Translations under genes and position numbers: made by a program
The notes under the pieces: model-generated
What the model saw: the letters and a program-made list of their open reading frames with translations, nothing else
Told to the model about the DNA's origin: nothing
Databases searched by the model: none
Shown here: piece by piece, positions 1-28,846 of the stretch
How the letters are laid out: every line of letters begins with the position of its first letter
Numbering within the stretch: position 1 is the first letter of the stretch
From: Escherichia coli
Lineage (GTDB): Bacteria; Pseudomonadota; Gammaproteobacteria; Enterobacterales; Enterobacteriaceae
NCBI RefSeq assembly: GCF_030013595.1
Contig: NZ_CP122768.1
Length of the DNA: 64,000 bases
Direction: 5' to 3' (one strand)

Positions 1-748
1 ATAGTTTGCTGATAATGTATACTCTGAATTCGATGTATCACAGATTCATGTTCAGGCATGTCGGAAGCATTGCTTGTCTCCACCGCCAGGGATGCAAAGG
101 CGCTGGCATAACACAGTGCTGATTCCAGTGATTTTCCTTTCGCAAGTCCTGATGCCAGAGCGCCGTTAAAAGCATCCCCGGCTCCTGCCGTATTTTTAAC
201 GACCGCTGGAAACGCTGGCGAATGAATGAATTTTTTGCCATCAAATGCGAGCGAGCCCTTGCTACCGAGCGTGATAACGGTGTTTTTTACCCCTTTATTG
301 TGGATAGCTTCTGCAGCTCGTTTAGCTGATTCAAGATCGTGTACGTCTATGCCGGACAGTAAACCAGCTTCTGTTTCATTGGGGGTGATATAATCAACAT
401 CCTGAATAAGTTCGTTGACGATATCATTATAGGGTGCCGGGTTAATAATGACCGGGATACTGTTTTTTTGCGCCAATGTGATCGCTTGTTGCAGAGCGGT
501 ATAATTTGTTTCGAGCTGCAGAAGTATGACATCAGAATTAATAATCGCTTCTTTCTGAATAGTTATTTCATCGGACGACATTGTCATGTTGGCACCGGGA
601 TAGATCGCAATAACATTATCGCCAGTACCTTCATTAACAAGGATCGTGGCAGTTCCGGTTTGCGTTTCTTTCGTTTGATAAATTATACTTTTATAAATCT
701 TAGACGAATTCATAAAGTTGATCGCATAATCACTAAAGTGATCTGTAC

Positions 749-757
749 CTACTTTTG
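749..757. repeat. IS1 target-site duplication, left copy (ctacttttg)
   Basis: Identical 9-mer immediately flanks both IS1 ends. Confidence 0.85.
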
Positions 758-772
758 GGTAGTGACTCCAAC

Positions 773-1276
773 TTACTGATAGTGTTTTATGTTCAGATAA
801 TGCCCGATGACCTTGTCATGCAGCTCCACCGATTTTGAGAACGACAGCGACTTCCGTCCCAGCCTTGCCAGATGTTGTCTCAGATTCAGATTATGTCGCT
901 CAATGCGCTGAGTGTAACGCTTGCTGATAACGTGCAGCTTTCCCTTCAGGCGTGATTCATACAGCGGCCAGCCATCCGTCATCCATACCACGACCTCAAA
1001 GGCCGACAGCAGGCTCAGAAGACGCTCCAGTGTGGCCAGAGTGCGTTCACCGAAAACGTGCGCCACAACTGTCCTCCGTATCCTGTCATACGCGTAAAAC
1101 AGCCAGCGCTGACGTGATTTAGCACCGACGTAGCCCCACTGTTCGTCCATTTCCGCGCAGACGATGACGTCACTGCCCGGCTGTATGCGCGAGGTTACCG
1201 ACTGCGGCCTGAGTTTTTTAAATGGCGGAAAATCGTGTTGAGGCCAACGCCCATAATGCGGGCGGTTGCCCGGCAT
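773..1276 (-). CDS. insB: IS1 InsB (transposase C-terminal ORF, expressed as InsAB' by frameshift)
   Basis: 167-aa ORF overlapping the insA 3' end in another frame, typical IS1 organisation. Confidence 0.9.
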
Positions 1277-1470
1277 CCGACGCCATTCATGGCCATATCA
1301 ATGATTTTCTGGTGCGTACCGGGTTGAGAAGCGGTGTAAGTGAACTGCAGTTGCCATGTTTTACGGCAGTGAGAGCAGAGATAGCGCTGATGTCCGGCAG
1401 TGCTTTTGCCGTTACGCACCACCCCGTCAGTAGCTGAACAGGAGGGACAGCTGATAGAAACAGAAGCCAC
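1195..1470 (-). CDS. insA: IS1 InsA
   Basis: 91-aa [45 protein letters not shown]... matches IS1 InsA. Confidence 0.9.
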
Positions 1471-1525
1471 TGGAGCACCTCAAAAACACCATCATACACT
1501 AAATCAGTAAGTTGGCAGCATCACC

Positions 1526-1534
1526 CTACTTTTG
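1526..1534. repeat. IS1 target-site duplication, right copy (ctacttttg)
   Basis: Identical 9-mer immediately flanks both IS1 ends. Confidence 0.85.
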
Positions 1535-1736
1535 TTATGAAATAAACATCAGTATCGGCAAAGCTTGCTGCCAGCGCCTGGTTACAACCTTTTCCCCCCG
1601 GTGAAAATATAAAATTACTTGCCAGAAGCGATTCTCCGATAGTGGGAAGCCTCGGCAAATAACTGATGATATCAACATTAAACGAACCAATAACGCATAC
1701 TTGACTTTTCATAGTTGAGTGGCCTTTTTTTATTCC

Positions 1737-1979
1737 CTAGGCTGTATCATAATTTTCAAGCGCATAAGCGATTTCATTTTTCGCAATAGTATCAAGCGAG
1801 TCTAGGACGATAAAAGCACCGCCATGATATCGAGTCAGATAGCCAAGTCTGGCAAGTTCATTAAGATCTGATCGAATAGTTTCTTTCGTTACATTGAGGC
1901 TATTGGACAGATCGGATACTTTTACAGAACCGAATTTACTGAGTCGTTTCAATATTTCATGATGGCGTTCAAATTTCAT
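1737..1979 (-). CDS. Short DeoR-family HTH protein (80 aa), possibly a truncated regulator of the downstream kinase
   Basis: MKFERHHEILKRLSKFGSVKVSDLSNSLNVTKETIRSDLNELARLGYL resembles a DeoR N-terminal HTH domain; stop lies 25 bp upstream of the kinase start. Confidence 0.5.
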   Translation of the reverse strand: MKFERHHEILKRLSKFGSVKVSDLSNSLNVTKETIRSDLNELARLGYLTRYHGGAFIVLDSLDTIAKNEIAYALENYDTA

Positions 1980-2097
1980 GCTTCACCTCACTTCAGTTAC
2001 GTTAATATCTGTCGATGTATATTGATGTGATAATCACCATAAAGTGGCGGGGAAAAGCAAAAAAAATCAAAAATAGCCGGAGAAAAGGTAAGCGTTA

Positions 2098-2580
2098 ATG
2101 GAGAATCATATTGATGCTTATTTATTGGTGAGAACTACGTTCCATGGCAGGAGTTCATCAATACGGTTGGAAGGTTATTCCGGCAGTACGCTCAGGATAT
2201 GGCGCAGATACTCTTCCGGATCAATGTCGTTCAGAAGGCAAGTGCCGATAAGCCCATACAACAGTGCACTGCGCTCGCCGTCGAAGAACATAAAGTTTTT
2301 ATTTCCGAGACAGATGGCACAAAGGGCTTTTTCCGCGGCATTATGTCTGCCTCCGCCTGACCGTCAACACTGTAATAACAGAGTGCGCCCCACTGATTCA
2401 GTACACAGCTGAACCATTCTCCCAGTCTGGATTTTTGGACAGCGTGGCATTTTTCTCCACCATCCACGCATGCAGTGAGTCCAGTAACAGTTTGCTCTTC
2501 CTCTGCCTGACCACAAGATGTTCTGGTTCTGGCATACTGAATTTGGCCACCTGAGCATAGGTAATATGCTCACCTTAGAA
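2098..2580 (-). mobile_element. IS66-family transposase 3' remnant, frame-broken
   Basis: Minus-strand translation in shifting frames gives ...LHAWMVEK..PKIQTG..., ...QWGALCYYSVDGQ...IMPRKKPF... and ...DPEEYLRHILSVLPE..RIDELLPWNV, resembling the conserved C-terminus of IS66 TnpC. Confidence 0.5.
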
Positions 2581-2590
2581 CAACACAGAT

Positions 2591-3288
<698 letters not shown>

Positions 3289-3477
3289 CGCTTACGCGAG
3301 AGCAATAAGTGGCTGGCCACCATTCTCGATACAAAACTCTGCTGAATAGCAGCGATTTTCCCAGCGTGGTGCGTCTTTTGCATTTTACTGGTTCTGAGTT
3401 ATCAATTATCTGTTCACTAATGACTACTCTAAAAAGTTGTATCAATTTAAGTGATATAGGGAGTCCGGAGATTCACC
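3289..3477 (-). mobile_element. IS2-like left-end remnant (terminal repeat plus degenerate orfA 5' region)
   Basis: Minus-strand sequence TGAATCTCCGGACTCCCTATATCACTTAAAT...TTTTTAGAGTAGTCATT..GAACAGATAATTGAT...ATCGCTGCTATTCAGCAGAG resembles the IS2 left end and orfA start (MID..P.K.RRTT..K) as recalled from memory; abuts the truncated receptor gene. Confidence 0.45.
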
Positions 3478-4002
3478 CTTTTTGGTGATGAAGTTAACAA
3501 TACCGCCAATTGCCTGTGAACCGTACAGTACGGAATATGGACCTTTCACTACCTCAACACGCTCCAGCGCAGACTCATCTATCAACAGTCCCACACCATA
3601 ATTATCTCCGGCGCGCTGATAAGTTACCTCCTGACCATCAATGAGAATTAAAACACGGGAGGATGCTTCGCCACGAATGCGGATTTGTTTACGGCCTGCC
3701 AAGGAGTTGTCTGTTATCTCTACTCCGGGGATGTCCTGCAAATTATCGGCTATGGAGGCATTGGTGGAGTTCTGCAATGTTTGTTGGTCAATAACCTGTA
3801 TAGTCGCCGGGCTTTCCCAAAGGTTGCTTGCCGAACGATTCGTGGTCACGACGAGCGTCTCTTCGTTGCTGATTTTTGTTTCTGAAGAAGTTGCGGTTGC
3901 AGTAGAAACTATCCCAGAAATGCATAATGACAGAGTGGAAAGGATATAAATTCGACAAGGTATATTATATAACATTTCATCCCTCATTAATACAAAGCAC
4001 AA
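3442..4002 (-). pseudogene. TonB-dependent outer-membrane receptor, N-terminal plug fragment (yoeA-like), truncated by IS insertion
   Basis: Signal peptide, TonB-box-like ETLVVT, plug-domain motifs (IRIRGEASSRVLILIDGQEV, VEVVKGPYSVLYGSQAIGG); the frame runs into the IS2-like terminal repeat and stops; no barrel domain follows. Confidence 0.6.
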
Positions 4003-4182
4003 ATGATTGCTGTAATGATAATTATTTTCATTTATGTTCTCATATATCTATAATTATTGTCATCTTCATAAATTGTAAATATCAAACATTTTTGACCTTA
4101 ATCATGTTTTTTGATAGATATTTTACGACTGAACATATCCGTCGTTTCCTCTGACTCGTGTCAGTCGGTCTCTGGTTGTATC

Positions 4183-4221
4183 CACGGACCGCACTCTTGA
4201 CATAAGAGTGCGGTCCGTGGA
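4183..4221. repeat. Perfect 17-bp inverted repeat with 5-nt loop (ccacggaccgcactctt gacat aagagtgcggtccgtgg)
   Basis: Read directly from sequence; GC-rich stem in an AT-rich noncoding segment; no adjacent T-run on either strand. Confidence 0.8.
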
Positions 4222-5646
4222 AAACGGAGTTGAAAAAATGGTGTCTGAAAGAAGGTACCATCATTGTGATGACAAATACTTTGGCGTGGATAATGTAATT
4301 AATTGCTGAAATTGACCGTATATGCGGTAAGACTCATATCAGTATCAGGTCCGGTTAATTGCTGATACTAATATAAACTTTTTACAAAAGGATGAATGCA
4401 GAAGGTTACTCTAATGGCCAGAGTGATGACAATGATGGTCAGACGTTGACCTGCAGAAACTGCATTTTAATTGGTCTATAAAGTCTGCAAGAGGAATCAG
4501 GGTCAGATCAGTGAGTCTTATCGCGGCCCGAAGCTATGACTGAAAGAAGGCTGGATACAGAATTGCAACAATTTGGCAATGTCAGAACACAGAAGCTTTG
4601 CAAGCAGGTGAAAGGTTATGTCTAGCAAAAGGAGTATATCAGAATATATCTACTGATGTACAAAACACAACAATAGCTTCATGATATATAAATACGTGAT
4701 GACGAGTGGTACTCCGCATGGTTATTTAACTTCTCAGCACCACTAATGATCCTGAGCAACTTCGTATTTGGGCCATTACCATGGAGTAGAAAGCTGTGTC
4801 TGAGAATGCAGAATTTGAGAAAAGAATTCGCTTTCTTGGAGAGCTTCTGAAAATGGCACGCTAACAACGTTTTGTTAAAAAATGTGAATCACTTGCCGGG
4901 GCTGCATTTTCTATTCGAGGAGAATGTTGACGTAGATATTACAGAAATCTCAGCGCATCAGGATAAACTGCTACCTTAGGTCAACCACCAAAAGAAAATA
5001 CAATACGTCCAGTTTGTATGCCTTTAATAACACATCTTCTAAATGTTGAAGAATTATCCCGCCTGCTGAAGAACGTTGCTCTGAGTGTGATAAACCTTTT
5101 TATTCTTGATGATGTCAGCGAGAAGATGGAATATATCCCCGACTGGGTCGTGGTTACCCGGTTAAACATCTGGTGGCGCTAATAAATCTGGCAAGTCACA
5201 TTCTGTTGAATGCTGTGACAGTGCCTTACCGAGAGAGCGAAATTGTGGTGTTCTAGTGCATAGTCGCCACCATTCCGGATAATTCTATTACGTTGTTTTA
5301 CAAGTTCTTTTACAGCGCAGATCTGTCGCTGACGTTGAATCAATAGCCTGGATTTCAGAACACAATGCCCGTTTGCTGGTTGTTCCGGCAGTAGCATTAA
5401 TTCATTATCTGAATGAAATGTGTCAATCCACAGAAACCGCTGTCAATGACGCATTTTGTCGGACGTTAACACGAGAAAGTCTGGCTATTCCGTAATGCCA
5501 TCTTATTTCGTAATGGATTGAGAATGCTGGATTTTTAATTATATTACGCGCAGTATTAATCGCGTAAATGTTTTGCGGTCAGCAACGGTGGGGGATCCAT
5601 TGTTCTGTTCAATGAATACCATCATACAATTGAATCAGGAGTCGGT

Positions 5647-9075: not shown

Positions 9076-9151
9076 TGGCTCCTCTGACTGGACTCGAACC
9101 AGTGACATACGGATTAACAGTCCGCCGTTCTACCGACTGAACTACAGAGGA
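9076..9151 (-). tRNA. asnV: tRNA-Asn (GUU)
   Basis: Reverse complement is the 76-nt E. coli tRNA-Asn with CCA end; anticodon loop cuGUUaa. Confidence 0.95.
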
Positions 9152-9405
9152 ATCGTGTGAACGGGGCGCATATTAATGGCAGTGCATGGTGATGTCAAAG
9201 GGTGAAATGCATTTTTTTGTTTGTTTGCTGTCAATTTCAACAAAGTGGTGAGCTTTCAATCTTATTGGTAATGAACCATCGTGGTGCATACCCTCCTTTT
9301 ATGGGGCAGGGGAACGCGACAGCTGATAAAAAGAGCCAATGACGAACCTATCATAATCTCTTATTTGACAGTTGGTTAGCTTGTACATCAACGCCAAAAT
9401 AAAAC

Positions 9406-9421
9406 TGGCAAGCATCTTGCA
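9406..9421 (+). promoter_or_regulatory. Sigma-54 -24/-12 promoter element for nac (TGGCAagcatcTTGCA)
   Basis: Matches TGGCAC-N5-TTGCW about 55 bp upstream of the nac start; nac is a known sigma-54/NtrC-dependent gene. Confidence 0.55.
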
Positions 9422-9476
9422 GTCTGGTTGTAAGTAATGGCGGCACTTGGGCCGATTCTTATAAACCGGAGGCAAC

Positions 9477-10394
9477 ATGAACTTCAGACGCCTGAAATAC
9501 TTCGTAAAAATTGTAGATATTGGTAGCCTGACCCAGGCTGCTGAAGTATTGCATATCGCACAACCAGCGCTCAGTCAGCAGGTTGCCACACTGGAAGGTG
9601 AGTTAAATCAACAACTTTTGATTCGCACAAAACGGGGCGTTACGCCAACTGACGCCGGAAAAATTCTCTATACCCATGCGCGGGCCATTTTACGTCAGTG
9701 TGAGCAGGCCCAACTGGCGGTGCATAACGTTGGTCAGGCATTATCGGGGCAAGTCTCGATTGGCTTTGCGCCAGGAACCGCTGCGTCATCCATCACCATG
9801 CCCTTATTACAGGCGGTTCGCGCTGAATTCCCGGAGGTCGTTATCTATCTTCATGAAAATAGCGGTGCAGTACTTAACGAAAAACTGATAAATCATCAAC
9901 TCGATATGGCGGTGATTTATGAGCATTCCCCTGTGGCTGGTGTATCCAGCCAGGCTTTGCTGAAAGAAGATCTTTTCCTGGTAGGAACTCAAGATTGCCC
10001 GGGGCAAAGCGTTGATGTTAATGCTATTGCGCAAATGAACCTCTTTCTCCCTAGTGATTACAGTGCTATTAGACTTCGTGTTGATGAGGCTTTTTCCCTA
10101 CGGCGACTCACGGCAAAAGTCATTGGTGAAATTGAGTCTATTGCCACGCTTACCGCAGCGATTGCTAGCGGCATGGGCGTTGCAGTATTACCCGAATCGG
10201 CCGCGCGTTCGTTATGTGGCGCAGTAAATGGTTGGATGTCACGCATTACCACTCCTTCCATGAGTCTCTCTTTGTCATTAAATTTACCCGCCAGAGCGAA
10301 CTTATCGCCACAGGCACAGGCAGTGAAAGAGTTGTTAATGTCAGTGATGAGTTCTCCAGTGATGGAAAAAAGGCAGTGGCAATTGGTGAGCTAA
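9477..10394 (+). CDS. nac: Nitrogen assimilation control protein, LysR family
   Basis: 305 aa, N-terminal LysR HTH ([35 protein letters not shown]). Confidence 0.92.
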   Translation: MNFRRLKYFVKIVDIGSLTQAAEVLHIAQPALSQQVATLEGELNQQLLIRTKRGVTPTDAGKILYTHARAILRQCEQAQLAVHNVGQALSGQVSIGFAPGTAASSITMPLLQAVRAEFPEVVIYLHENSGAVLNEKLINHQLDMAVIYEHSPVAGVSSQALLKEDLFLVGTQDCPGQSVDVNAIAQMNLFLPSDYSAIRLRVDEAFSLRRLTAKVIGEIESIATLTAAIASGMGVAVLPESAARSLCGAVNGWMSRITTPSMSLSLSLNLPARANLSPQAQAVKELLMSVMSSPVMEKRQWQLVS

Positions 10395-10495
10395 GCGTTA
10401 TATCGGGATGGAATAAGATGCGGGTTTTTATTATTTGTTATGCCGGGCATTAGACTTTAACAATAACGGGATATCTGAACTGCCCGGAGTTTACC

Positions 10496-11446
10496 GTGAA
10501 TTTCCAACAACTAAAGATAATCCGCGAGGCTGCACGTCAGGATTACAACTTGACAGAGGTTGCGAATATGCTTTTTACCTCACAGTCAGGCGTCAGCCGT
10601 CACATTCGGGAACTGGAGGATGAACTTGGCATCGAAATATTTGTTCGACGAGGTAAGCGACTGCTGGGCATGACTGAACCGGGCAAAGCATTACTGGTCA
10701 TTGCAGAACGCATTCTTAATGAAGCCAGTAATGTTCGTCGGCTTGCAGACCTGTTTACCAACGATACGTCTGGCGTTCTCACTATTGCAACGACGCATAC
10801 TCAGGCACGTTATAGCTTGCCTGAGGTCATTAAAGCTTTTCGCGAACTTTTCCCGGAGGTTCGGCTGGAGCTAATCCAGGGTACACCACAGGAAATTGCG
10901 ACGTTGTTGCAAAATGGCGAAGCTGATATTGGTATCGCCAGCGAGCGTTTGAGTAATGACCCGCAGCTCGTCGCCTTCCCGTGGTTTCGTTGGCACCATA
11001 GTTTGCTTGTTCCACTCGATCATCCCTTGACGCAAATTACACCGTTGACGCTGGAATCAATAGCGAAGTGGCCGTTAATTACTTACCGACAGGGGATTAC
11101 CGGGCGCTCACGTATTGATGACGCATTTGTCCGCAAAGGTTTGCTGGCAGATATTGTATTAAGTGCGCAGGATTCTGATGTCATTAAAACCTATGTTGCT
11201 CTTGGGCTGGGGATTGGATTAGTTGCCGAACAATCCAGCGGCGAACAAGAGGAAGAGAATTTAATCCGTCTGGATACGCGGCATCTTTTCGATGCCAATA
11301 CTGTATGGTTGGGACTGAAGCGAGGGCAACTTCAACGTAACTATGTCTGGCGCTTTCTGGAACTTTGTAATGCAGGACTGTCAGTTGAGGATATCAAGCG
11401 CCAGGTGATGGAGAACAGTGAAGAGGAAATTGATTATCAGATATAG
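10496..11446 (+). CDS. cbl: Sulfonate-utilisation transcriptional activator, LysR family (CysB paralogue)
   Basis: 316 aa LysR HTH protein directly downstream of nac. Confidence 0.9.
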   Translation: MNFQQLKIIREAARQDYNLTEVANMLFTSQSGVSRHIRELEDELGIEIFVRRGKRLLGMTEPGKALLVIAERILNEASNVRRLADLFTNDTSGVLTIATTHTQARYSLPEVIKAFRELFPEVRLELIQGTPQEIATLLQNGEADIGIASERLSNDPQLVAFPWFRWHHSLLVPLDHPLTQITPLTLESIAKWPLITYRQGITGRSRIDDAFVRKGLLADIVLSAQDSDVIKTYVALGLGIGLVAEQSSGEQEEENLIRLDTRHLFDANTVWLGLKRGQLQRNYVWRFLELCNAGLSVEDIKRQVMENSEEEIDYQI

Positions 11447-11476
11447 CAAAAAGCCCGCTATAAAAGCGGGCTTTTC
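11447..11476. terminator. Bidirectional intrinsic terminator between cbl and asnU
   Basis: Hairpin aaagcccgct/agcgggcttt followed by a T-run. Confidence 0.6.
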
Positions 11477-11482
11477 AGAAAT

Positions 11483-11558
11483 TGGCTCCTCTGACTGGAC
11501 TCGAACCAGTGACATACGGATTAACAGTCCGCCGTTCTACCGACTGAACTACAGAGGA
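11483..11558 (-). tRNA. asnU: tRNA-Asn (GUU)
   Basis: Identical 76-nt tRNA-Asn sequence. Confidence 0.95.
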
Positions 11559-11718
11559 ATCGCTGTTGAGGCACATCTTAACGGCGAAAAATCTTTTGTC
11601 AAACCCGATTTTTAAATTTCCCAACTGTTTGCCGTTTCTATCAACAGTTTGTTGCATTTGCAGACAATTTGTTGGCGAAAATCTTTGCAGCTTTGCTGAT
11701 TCTCCCTCATTATTTGAA

Positions 11719-13206
11719 ATGTGGTTTCACTTTCTGCAATTAAGGTCGGCTTTGAATATCTCCTCTGCTTTACGCCAGGTTGTTCACGGCACTCGCTGGC
11801 ACGCCAAACGCAAGAGTTACAAAGTGTTGTTCTGGCGCGAGATAACCCCGCTTGCTGTTCCTATCTTCATGGAGAACGCCTGTGTCCTGTTGATGGGTGT
11901 CCTGAGCACTTTTCTGGTCAGCTGGCTGGGAAAAGATGCGATGGCCGGCGTGGGATTGGCGGACAGCTTCAATATGGTCATTATGGCTTTTTTTGCAGCT
12001 ATCGATCTTGGTACCACTGTCGTTGTGGCATTTAGTCTCGGTAAGCGGGATCGACGACGAGCGAGGGTGGCGACGCGGCAGTCATTGGTGATCATGACGT
12101 TGTTTGCCGTGCTGTTGGCAACGCTTATTCATCATTTTGGCGAACAAATTATTGATTTCGTTGCGGGTGATGCCACGACAGAAGTTAAAGCACTGGCGTT
12201 GACTTATCTGGAGCTGACGGTACTTAGTTATCCAGCAGCTGCCATCACTTTGATTGGTAGCGGGGCACTTCGTGGTGCAGGGAATACGAAAATACCGCTA
12301 CTGATTAACGGTAGCCTGAATATTCTTAATATTATTATTAGCGGCATATTGATTTACGGCCTTTTCTCTTGGCCGGGACTGGGATTTGTCGGGGCTGGGT
12401 TGGGTTTAACCATTTCTCGTTATATTGGCGCAGTGGCAATTTTGTGGGTGCTGGCGATTGGTTTTAATCCTGCGCTAAGGATTTCGTTAAAGAGCTATTT
12501 TAAACCGCTGAATTTTAGCATTATCTGGGAAGTCATGGGGATTGGTATTCCAGCGAGTGTCGAATCAGTGTTATTTACCAGTGGTCGGTTATTAACCCAA
12601 ATGTTCGTTGCCGGGATGGGGACCAGTGTTATTGCCGGAAATTTTATCGCGTTTTCAATTGCGGCTCTTATCAACTTACCCGGAAGTGCGCTCGGTTCTG
12701 CTTCTACGATCATTACAGGCCGAAGGTTGGGGGTAGGGCAGATAGCGCAAGCAGAGATTCAGTTGCGGCATGTGTTCTGGCTGTCCACTCTTGGATTAAC
12801 GGCTATCGCCTGGCTAACGGCTCCCTTTGCCGGGGTTATGGCATCGTTTTACACCCAGGATCCACAGGTTAAACATGTCGTTGTGATTCTGATTTGGCTA
12901 AATGCTTTATTTATGCCTATTTGGTCTGCCTCATGGGTGCTACCCGCTGGATTTAAGGGGGCTCGCGATGCACGTTACGCCATGTGGGTTTCTATGTTGA
13001 GCATGTGGGGTTGCCGGGTTGTAGTCGGTTATGTGCTGGGAATCATGCTTGGCTGGGGTGTGGTTGGTGTCTGGATGGGAATGTTTGCCGACTGGGCTGT
13101 GCGGGCCGTGCTGTTTTACTGGCGAATGGTTACTGGACGTTGGCTGTGGAAATACCCTCGACCTGAGCCGCAAAAGTGTGAAAAAAAGCCAGTTGTGTCG
13201 GAATAA
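11719..13206 (+). CDS. yeeO: MATE-family multidrug/flavin efflux transporter
   Basis: Polytopic membrane protein; start chosen at MWFHFLQ to give 495 aa; the longer 546-aa ORF begins too close to the asnU terminator. Confidence 0.8.
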   Translation: MWFHFLQLRSALNISSALRQVVHGTRWHAKRKSYKVLFWREITPLAVPIFMENACVLLMGVLSTFLVSWLGKDAMAGVGLADSFNMVIMAFFAAIDLGTTVVVAFSLGKRDRRRARVATRQSLVIMTLFAVLLATLIHHFGEQIIDFVAGDATTEVKALALTYLELTVLSYPAAAITLIGSGALRGAGNTKIPLLINGSLNILNIIISGILIYGLFSWPGLGFVGAGLGLTISRYIGAVAILWVLAIGFNPALRISLKSYFKPLNFSIIWEVMGIGIPASVESVLFTSGRLLTQMFVAGMGTSVIAGNFIAFSIAALINLPGSALGSASTIITGRRLGVGQIAQAEIQLRHVFWLSTLGLTAIAWLTAPFAGVMASFYTQDPQVKHVVVILIWLNALFMPIWSASWVLPAGFKGARDARYAMWVSMLSMWGCRVVVGYVLGIMLGWGVVGVWMGMFADWAVRAVLFYWRMVTGRWLWKYPRPEPQKCEKKPVVSE

Positions 13207-13306
13207 ACGACAAAGTGCAGATTATTTCAGCAAACGATTTCAAATTTAAAAAACAGGCTTTGACATTGTGGATGAGCGTCGCTAATATTCGCCTCGTTCT
13301 CACGAT

Positions 13307-13382
13307 TCCTCTGTAGTTCAGTCGGTAGAACGGCGGACTGTTAATCCGTATGTCACTGGTTCGAGTCCAGTCAGAGGAGCCA
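13307..13382 (+). tRNA. asnW: tRNA-Asn (GUU)
   Basis: Identical 76-nt tRNA-Asn sequence. Confidence 0.95.
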
Positions 13383-27689: not shown

Positions 27690-27765
27690 TGGCTCCTCTG
27701 ACTGGACTCGAACCAGTGACATACGGATTAACAGTCCGCCGTTCTACCGACTGAACTACAGAGGA
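27690..27765 (-). tRNA. asnT: tRNA-Asn (GUU)
   Basis: Identical 76-nt tRNA-Asn sequence, with the same 5' leader as asnV. Confidence 0.95.
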
Positions 27766-27865
27766 ATCGTGTGAACGGGGCGCATATTACTTAGCGGTAC
27801 CTTGCCTGTCAACACTAAATTTCATAAGTCATTTCAATTGGTTAATTAATCTGCAAAGTTGTTAA

Positions 27866-28663
27866 TTAATGAACATTCGTCGCCGAAAACGAGTCTGTAT
27901 CATTAGCGTGATGCAGTCTCTGCAAAGGATCTTGTTGATAAAATTGGCAGAAACGTTGCCACAATGAAGGGAAACGAGGAGCAAAAAGTTCTGGGGCGCT
28001 AAAGAAATATTCAGAAAGTACGGCAAAACATTCAGCAGGATCACTGGCAGCATAAGCATCAATGCTCGCCGCATTCTCGCCAACCAATTCGATTTCTTCC
28101 TGAATGTTGTTCATTGCAGCATGAAGATCGTGTTCCCAGCCAGCAACCTCACGCAACGGAATAAAGGGAACTCCGCTGGCGCGATCGCCGTTACGGGTGT
28201 CCAGCTTATGAGCGACTTCATGAATAATCAGGTTAAAACCAGATGCATCAAAAGAATCTTGTATATCCAACCAGTTCAAAACGATAGGCCCTTGCTGCCA
28301 GCTCTGACCTGACTGAACAATACGTTGGTTATGCACCAGACCGATATCGTCTTCCCATTCATCATCGACCACAAATGGCGCAGGATAAATTAAGACTTCA
28401 TGAAAACCATCCAGCCATTCCAGTCCTAACTCCAGAACGGGCAGGCAAAATAGAAGTGCTATCCGGCAGCTTCTTAATGAATCCAGTTCAAAGCCCTGTA
28501 AAGGAACAAGCCGCTTTTGCTGTAAAAAACGTTCGGCAAGAGTGACTAATTTGCTTTGTTCCTGTTCCGTCAGACACGTTAAAAGGGGGATCGATAGTGC
28601 TTCCTGCCAGGGAAGGGCAGTTTGATGTGCTGATTCTTGTACTTTCCAGGGCCACTTAATCAT
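27866..28663 (-). CDS. mtfA: Mlc titration factor A (zinc-dependent peptidase family)
   Basis: 265 aa from MIKWPWK; HEVAH zinc-binding motif. Confidence 0.9.
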
Positions 28664-28756
28664 CGTTTTGCTCGCAAACTCGTCACTTGAACAAAATTGC
28701 ACGGACAGGGACTGTTAAAATGCCAAATTTCCTGGCATCATGGCAACCATCTGAAC

Positions 28757-28846
28757 GGAGAGATGCCGGAGCGGCTGAACGGACCGGTCTCGAAAACCGG
28801 AGTAGGGGCAACTCTACCGGGGGTTCAAATCCCCCTCTCTCCGCCA
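28757..28846 (+). tRNA. serU: tRNA-Ser (CGA)
   Basis: 90-nt sequence GGAGAGATGCCGGAGCGGCTGAACGGACCGGTCTCGAAAACCGG...CTCTCCGCCA with long variable arm; anticodon CGA is wild type, not the supD form. Confidence 0.93.

Follow-up and report, generated by a model that had tools for sequence, protein, structure and literature searches.

An IS1 insertion in the Escherichia coli orthologue of Salmonella rikA, in an allele that already carried an amber codon

Close to the start of the 64-kb stretch of Escherichia coli DNA analyzed here (hereafter the window, to which all positions refer), a PfkB-type sugar kinase gene is interrupted by an IS1 element, and what looks like a short DeoR-like ORF lies directly upstream of it. 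The locus therefore raises the question of which gene was hit, in what state the element found it and whether the insertion is what took the kinase out of action. The original prediction, made from the letters of the sequence, held that a clean and probably recent insertion had inactivated an otherwise undamaged kinase with a separate regulator-like neighbour. We are highly confident in a somewhat different account as the best explanation of the whole, namely that IS1 entered an orthologue of Salmonella rikA that carried an older nonsense mutation (Q81*), and that the element was the inactivating hit.

The IS1 element and its empty site

The inserted element is an IS1 family insertion sequence, as seen from its size, its inverted repeats, the insA and insB' frames, the A6C motif and the 9-bp duplication at its borders (Table 1). 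It begins with GGTAGTGACTCC... at 758 and, read on the reverse complement, with GGTGATGCTGCC... at 1525. The domains Zn_ribbon_InsA, HTH_Tnp_IS1 and DDE_Tnp_IS1 all scored far above the Pfam cut-offs, and the AAAAAAC motif falls within the insA/insB overlap, where a frameshift would fuse insA to insB' and so yield the InsAB' transposase. Over all 768 bp the element was 100% identical to IS1 copies annotated in several other E. coli genomes; identity was 98.0% to a copy annotated as IS1X2 and 94.5–95.3% to the IS1A and IS1B copies that were sampled. With its ORFs and ends intact and identical copies present at other sites, the element may be competent for transposition. No other IS1 is present in the 64-kb window; per genome, IS1 is found in a median of 11 places.

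Table 1. Positions of the IS1 element, its target duplication and the parts of the interrupted gene in the window
Feature	Position	Strand	Remarks
IS1, complete, 768 bp, IS1X2-like isoform	758..1525	-	Same transcription direction as rikA
IS1 right inverted repeat (IRR), GGTAGTGACTCCAACTTACTGAT	758..780		Matches IRL at 18/23 positions
IS1 left inverted repeat (IRL), GGTGATGCTGCCAACTTACTGAT on the - strand	1503..1525		Abuts the rikA 5' part
insA, 91 aa, Zn-ribbon and HTH domains	1195..1470	-	PF03811 3e-21, PF12759 1.7e-30
A6C (AAAAAAC) -1 frameshift motif	1213..1219	-	Element position 307 from IRL
insB frame, 167-aa ORF, DDE transposase domain DDE_Tnp_IS1	773..1276	-	PF03400 1.4e-74
Target-site duplication CTACTTTTG, left copy, native rikA sequence	749..757		Identical to 1526-1534
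Target-site duplication CTACTTTTG, right copy	1526..1534		Identical to 749-757
HTH_DeoR N-terminal extension, 80-aa ORF here	1737..1979	-	PF08220 1.4e-16, 60.4 bits vs cut-off 21
Amber TAG (Q81*) between the HTH and kinase parts of the ancestral 404-aa ORF	1737..1739	-	In-frame
Codon 51, TAT (Tyr); Cys in 83/95 full-length homologues	1827..1829	-	Travels with the amber allele
Kinase 5' fragment, Met90-equivalent ATG at 1712-1710, 63 codons ending ...FITKVG	1521..1712	-	TGA from IRL (1523-1521)
Kinase 3' fragment, codons 64-311 together with 749-757, GAGD and catalytic Asp (D343)	1..748	-	Window edge cuts the last 4 codons

The 768-bp length and the perfect 9-bp duplication named in the original prediction were both confirmed, and a chance match of such a specified 9-bp pair would be expected about once in 4^9 cases (3.8e-6). 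To reconstruct the gene, window positions 758–1534 (IS1 and one repeat copy) were removed in silico. This excision restored a single open minus-strand frame, 311 codons long and open past the start of the window; the exact rejoining of the frame thus stood as predicted, although the peptide across the junction reads ...FITKVGTDHFS..., with one G fewer than in the version given earlier (KVG|GTD). The window does not contain the whole kinase ORF, since comparison with a complete copy places its last four codons and its stop codon before base 1. An uninterrupted allele, which had been proposed as something to look for in related genomes, does exist: the excised 1323 bp were 100% identical over their full length to IS1-free sites in many E. 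coli genomes, and these empty sites contain a single copy of the 9-bp CTACTTTTG. Because the excised sequence is identical to the empty sites, the event was a simple transposition of one intact IS1 into the E. coli rikA orthologue, and the flanks have not been altered since. The GC content was 41.5% in rikA, 38.9% within ∼50 bp to either side of the target and 48.6% for the window; AT-rich DNA suits IS1 as a target.

A single 404-codon frame split by an amber codon

The reading of the gene as a PfkB kinase was borne out by homology searches with the reconstructed ORF, in which PF00294 matched residues 3–293 with E=1.8e-65 and 221.7 bits (gathering cut-off 25.8). The best NCBIfam matches were ribokinase models, both of which stayed below their curated cut-offs (TIGR02152, 286.6 vs 299.65; NF008353, 256.3 vs 341), and the best relative of solved structure was E. 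coli ribokinase (1GQT, E=1.2e-52). The kinase is thus ribokinase-like and is not filed as RbsK, whose curated equivalog cut-offs it misses. Its closest homologues are single proteins of ∼404 aa, with 99% identity in E. coli and 80–82% in Salmonella, and such relatives with 62–66% identity are found in Klebsiella, Citrobacter, Budvicia, Pectobacterium and Providencia. N101, D103, K130 and G340–D343 (GAGD), numbered along the 404-aa ORF, are invariant in all 95 full-length homologues and N133 is conserved in 94 of them; the reconstructed protein has every one of these residues. Throughout the 315-codon kinase frame, every invariant residue is kept and no lesion besides IS1 is present. Full-length identity, the HTH extension, Met90 and the gene neighbourhood all match Salmonella rikA (STM3547), so that, judged by sequence, the kinase gene is its E. 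coli orthologue. By analogy, the E. coli protein may be an ATP-dependent ribose kinase, an activity measured only for the Salmonella enzyme.

The 80-aa DeoR-like ORF, which the original prediction had treated as a gene of its own, turned out to be an N-terminal extension of the same frame, one in-frame TAG away from the kinase. The HTH ORF (1979–1737) is in frame with the kinase ATG at 1712, and only this TAG and eight sense codons lie between them; in the intact E. coli allele, codon 81 is Gln (CAG) and codon 51 is Cys. The ancestral ORF is accordingly that of a 404-aa HTH_DeoR–PfkB protein, with the 80-aa ORF as its amber-cut front. A full-length DeoR neighbour, which had been suggested as a check, was sought among the relatives and none was found; throughout the Enterobacterales the HTH is fused to the kinase. 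Similarly, no C-terminal DeoR effector-binding/oligomerisation domain was found in the 404-aa ORF or its homologues, which contain only PfkB-type kinase domains besides the HTH. The 404-aa ORF is not a canonical DeoR repressor.

To count the alleles, we used 41-mers centred on the variable base and required every 28-nt seed word to include that base. Among the 5426 complete genomes, 1991 have the rikA locus; the TAG allele was found in 226 and the CAG allele in 1748 of the 5426. One IS1-free locus (L001), an empty site 100% identical to the excised sequence, has the TAG together with C51Y. The amber codon came first and IS1 second, because the 226 TAG genomes lack the IS1 junction and the empty site of L001 already carries the TAG. 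The earlier statement that no later decay had occurred is therefore true of the time since the insertion, but the gene by then already bore an older nonsense mutation.

Two features at the front of the long frame were also observed. The ATG of the HTH ORF is preceded by a strong Shine–Dalgarno sequence (GTGAGGT), which is kept in E. coli, Salmonella and Klebsiella. The region upstream of the rikA M1 start (window 1980–2060) also has a T-rich tract and, at 2027–2037, a palindrome, GTGATTATCAC, which is partly conserved in Salmonella and could serve as an operator for the long, HTH-bearing form.

Which lesion inactivated the kinase

In Salmonella, STM3547 has been characterized as RikA, a ribose kinase (McCormick, Jabbar and Escalante-Semerena, Mol Microbiol 2026, PMC13432705). 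Chromosomal rikA by itself sustains growth of Salmonella on ribose, and RikA requires the catalytic Asp343 (PMC13432705). Translation from the native ribosome site gives a ∼35-kDa RikA that starts at Met90, and RikA(90–404) showed full complementation, a Salmonella rbsK deoK rikA triple mutant having served as the strain without ribokinase; initiation at Met90 was shown in Salmonella only and from a plasmid (PMC13432705). The same authors noted that ribose may be an off-target substrate, and they also remarked on the conservation of a four-gene cassette, the real substrate of which is still to be found (PMC13432705).

The start codon of the window kinase corresponds to Met90, which is conserved in 79 of the 95 full-length homologues, and the A-rich/GG ribosome site 5' of it is conserved with Salmonella. 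Codon 81 lies upstream of this start. Because Salmonella RikA starts at Met90, downstream of the position of the amber, the amber allele probably still gave a functional kinase and it was probably IS1 that killed it; whether the loss is assigned to IS1 or to the amber would depend on initiation at Met90, as known from the Salmonella data. Before the insertion, a CAG-to-TAG change at codon 81 had detached the N-terminal DeoR-type HTH from the kinase, which would probably still have been made from Met90. IS1 then came to lie after kinase codon 63, counted from the Met90-type start, so that the upstream fragment is a stub that ends in KVG at a TGA supplied by the IS1 end. This 63-aa stub has the residues for sugar binding (N101, D103, K130 and N133), and no start remains for the ATP-binding/catalytic part (GAGD, D343); such a split between the sugar-binding and catalytic parts would yield a kinase null, with IS1 as the actual inactivating step. 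IS1 insertions are strongly polar, and the three downstream cassette genes, which lie outside the window, would for this reason probably be silenced as well. The window strain would be unable to use the rikA cassette.

It is nevertheless worth asking whether IS1 was a neutral second hit in a pseudogene that was already dead, Q81* (with C51Y) having ended the function of the 404-aa protein. We consider this unlikely, given that the functional Salmonella protein starts downstream of codon 81, that both the M90 ATG and the ribosome site in front of it are conserved and that the kinase frame is otherwise free of lesions, with its invariant residues kept. Several observations do speak for it: the amber is older than the insertion, the IS1-free copy of the window allele is listed by the NCBI pipeline (PGAP) as a single pseudogene of 1215 nt on account of an 'internal stop', and the island is full of IS fragments, with the cassette eroded by IS1 in various ways in other genomes. 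A quite different view of the same amber, to which we give little credence, is that it represents the natural un-fusing of a two-product gene (a DeoR-HTH long form and a Met90 kinase) and not decay, and that the repeated IS1 hits could reflect selection to lose the cassette. Were this true, the 226 amber genomes would hold a ready-made separation-of-function allele, and such selection for cassette loss in E. coli, instead of neutral erosion, could lie behind the independent IS1 insertions at and near rikA.

Two further alternatives concern the element itself. IS1 is multicopy, and in a related draft contig (L011) a mosaic IS1 is followed by unrelated DNA, both of which would fit a repeat copy misplaced by the assembler; however, the perfect 9-bp duplication and the exact rejoining of the frame are the signature of a real transposition, and three independent assemblies share this IRL junction, so that an assembly artefact is hardly credible here. 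That IS1 marks a rearrangement (a deletion, an inversion or a composite transposon) and not a simple insertion is extremely improbable as well, since both flanks are contiguous native rikA that rejoins at 100% to the empty sites with one duplication copy, and the window holds a single IS1, even if IS1 copies do replace the downstream genes in other genomes. Our preferred reading is thus still the simple insertion of IS1 into an amber-bearing rikA that probably encoded a working kinase.

Spread of the insertion, the island and known relatives

The 41-mer across the IS1 IRL junction had no match in the 5426 complete genomes, among which the full 2100-bp query returned only IS1 copies at other positions. 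The same junction is present in at least three draft assemblies (L011, L012 and L013), and L011 and L012 also have the unusual core sequence of the window; the insertion therefore marks a small lineage and not a single isolate. The description of the insertion as recent is plausible, but the event is undatable: the junction is in none of the 5426 complete genomes, yet in at least three drafts. The 63-aa stub of the kinase has also been called as a product in draft assemblies, and we considered it as a marker for counting carriers; it was rejected, as only three contigs contain the IS1 junction and the others stop 2–3 nt beyond the target. Several independent short contigs (L014, L015 and L016) end 2–3 nt past the 9-bp target (around window 1525), and the final bases of these contigs agree with an uninterrupted allele, or with an oppositely oriented IS1 inserted 1 nt earlier, and not with the window junction. 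In L011 (GCA_021649405.1, 6188–6882), which shares the IRL junction, the sequence switches at about window 1239 to an IS1 isoform of ∼90% identity, beyond which an autotransporter fragment and sulfite-reductase-like genes replace the rest of rikA. This mosaic is either the result of IS1–IS1 recombination or an assembly chimera.

Other IS1 events have affected the same genes independently. In AVS0756, an IS1 is inserted in rikA 96 bp from the window site, and a clone comprising dog and room isolates has one in the HTH part. Z503 and ETEC1720 have IS1 just after an intact rikA, with the downstream genes replaced, and in ST12468 the GATase-like gene carries the element.

In IS1-free E. coli with the identical allele, the cassette consists of rikA, a GATase1-like gene, a DMT (YdcZ-type) transporter gene and a phosphotriesterase-like (PTE) gene, in this order; 13 bp lie between the kinase and the next three cassette genes, which are followed by a ggt fragment. 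The same four-gene cassette is found in Salmonella and Klebsiella. In E. coli it resides in an IS-riddled island between tmaR and cobU, and the downstream cassette genes of the window strain lie before base 1. The original prediction had called the kinase and its neighbour an accessory locus that could not be placed in K-12, and rightly so: the cassette is absent from the corresponding K-12 locus, and K-12 homology reaches only as far as window 3285 (yoeA region). The ggt fragment adjoins the phosphotriesterase-like gene at two E. coli loci (L001, 5825–6117; L006, 12093–13835), which mirrors the cassette–ggt order of Salmonella and suggests that the island copy in E. coli was captured from a chromosome with this arrangement.

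The DNA upstream of rikA has its own record of mobile elements. Decayed transposase fragments of the IS66 and IS3 families (window 2098–3290) lie between rikA and a truncated, yoeA-like ORF for a TonB-dependent receptor plug (3442–4002). From 3285 to 5256 the window is collinear with the yoeA/yoeH/yoeG pseudogene region of K-12, without IS2F and IS5H. The BLAST pieces against K-12 overlap here by 5 bp (3670–3674) and 4 bp (5253–5256), which are the target duplication sizes of the IS2F and IS5H elements, and the window appears to retain the empty sites of these two K-12 insertions.

When compared with AR434, a distantly related strain, the island end (1–5000) showed 2 mismatches in ∼4.2 kb, and the adjacent core (from cobU on, 5000–64000) was 2–4% divergent. 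The window is ∼97% identical to most E. coli, and its core is 99.8–99.9% identical to only two complete genomes, those of the pig isolates HCP5S3_I2 and LCP30S3_I5; HCP5S3_I2, the one of the two that was inspected, lacks the island. A recent horizontal transfer of the island into a lineage that has seldom been sequenced is suggested by these comparisons. A Shigella source, considered in view of the IS1 and of the ∼97% identity to most E. coli, was rejected because the 64 kb contain a single IS1 and the core is matched so closely by the two pig E. coli genomes. At window 9076–13382 and 27690–28846 there are four genes for tRNA-Asn (GTT) and one for tRNA-Ser (CGA); asn tRNAs are known sites of island integration. 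Between cobU and dcm, the genome closest in the core is longer than the window by ∼46 kb.

Taken together, the locus is a textbook case of IS1 entering an accessory gene with a newly characterized orthologue, and nothing about it is new in kind. The annotation is corrected from a regulator and a kinase to one amber-split 404-aa ORF, which is of little importance beyond annotation. E. coli thus has three natural kinds of rikA allele, an intact one (1748 genomes), an amber-split one (226 genomes) and an IS1-disrupted one, and these could provide free genetic material for studying the long HTH form and the STM3548–3550 genes.

Compared with known systems, the window element shows no difference of substance from the IS1 family, with which it shares the 768-bp length, imperfect inverted repeats of ∼23 bp that begin with GGT, insA, insB', the A6C motif, the 9-bp duplication and an AT-rich target. 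The N-terminal HTH_DeoR domain (PF08220) is common to the 404-aa ORF and the DeoR-family repressors (such as DeoR, GlpR and AgaR); unlike these, the ORF lacks a C-terminal sensor domain and has a PfkB kinase in its place. Like E. coli RbsK (PDB 1GQT/1RKD), the kinase belongs to the PfkB fold family and has the GGKGxNQ and GAGD motifs, whereas it scores below the RbsK equivalog cut-offs, has a different operon context and carries the N-terminal HTH extension that is missing from RbsK. The closest counterpart is Salmonella enterica RikA (STM3547), with 80% identity over the 404-aa ORF, the same HTH_DeoR and PfkB layout, Met90, the catalytic Asp343 and, in the genes that follow, homologues of STM3548, STM3549 and STM3550. 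The two differ in that the E. coli cassette is on an accessory island beside cobU, while that of Salmonella is chromosomal and next to ggt, and in that the window allele carries Q81*, C51Y and IS1.
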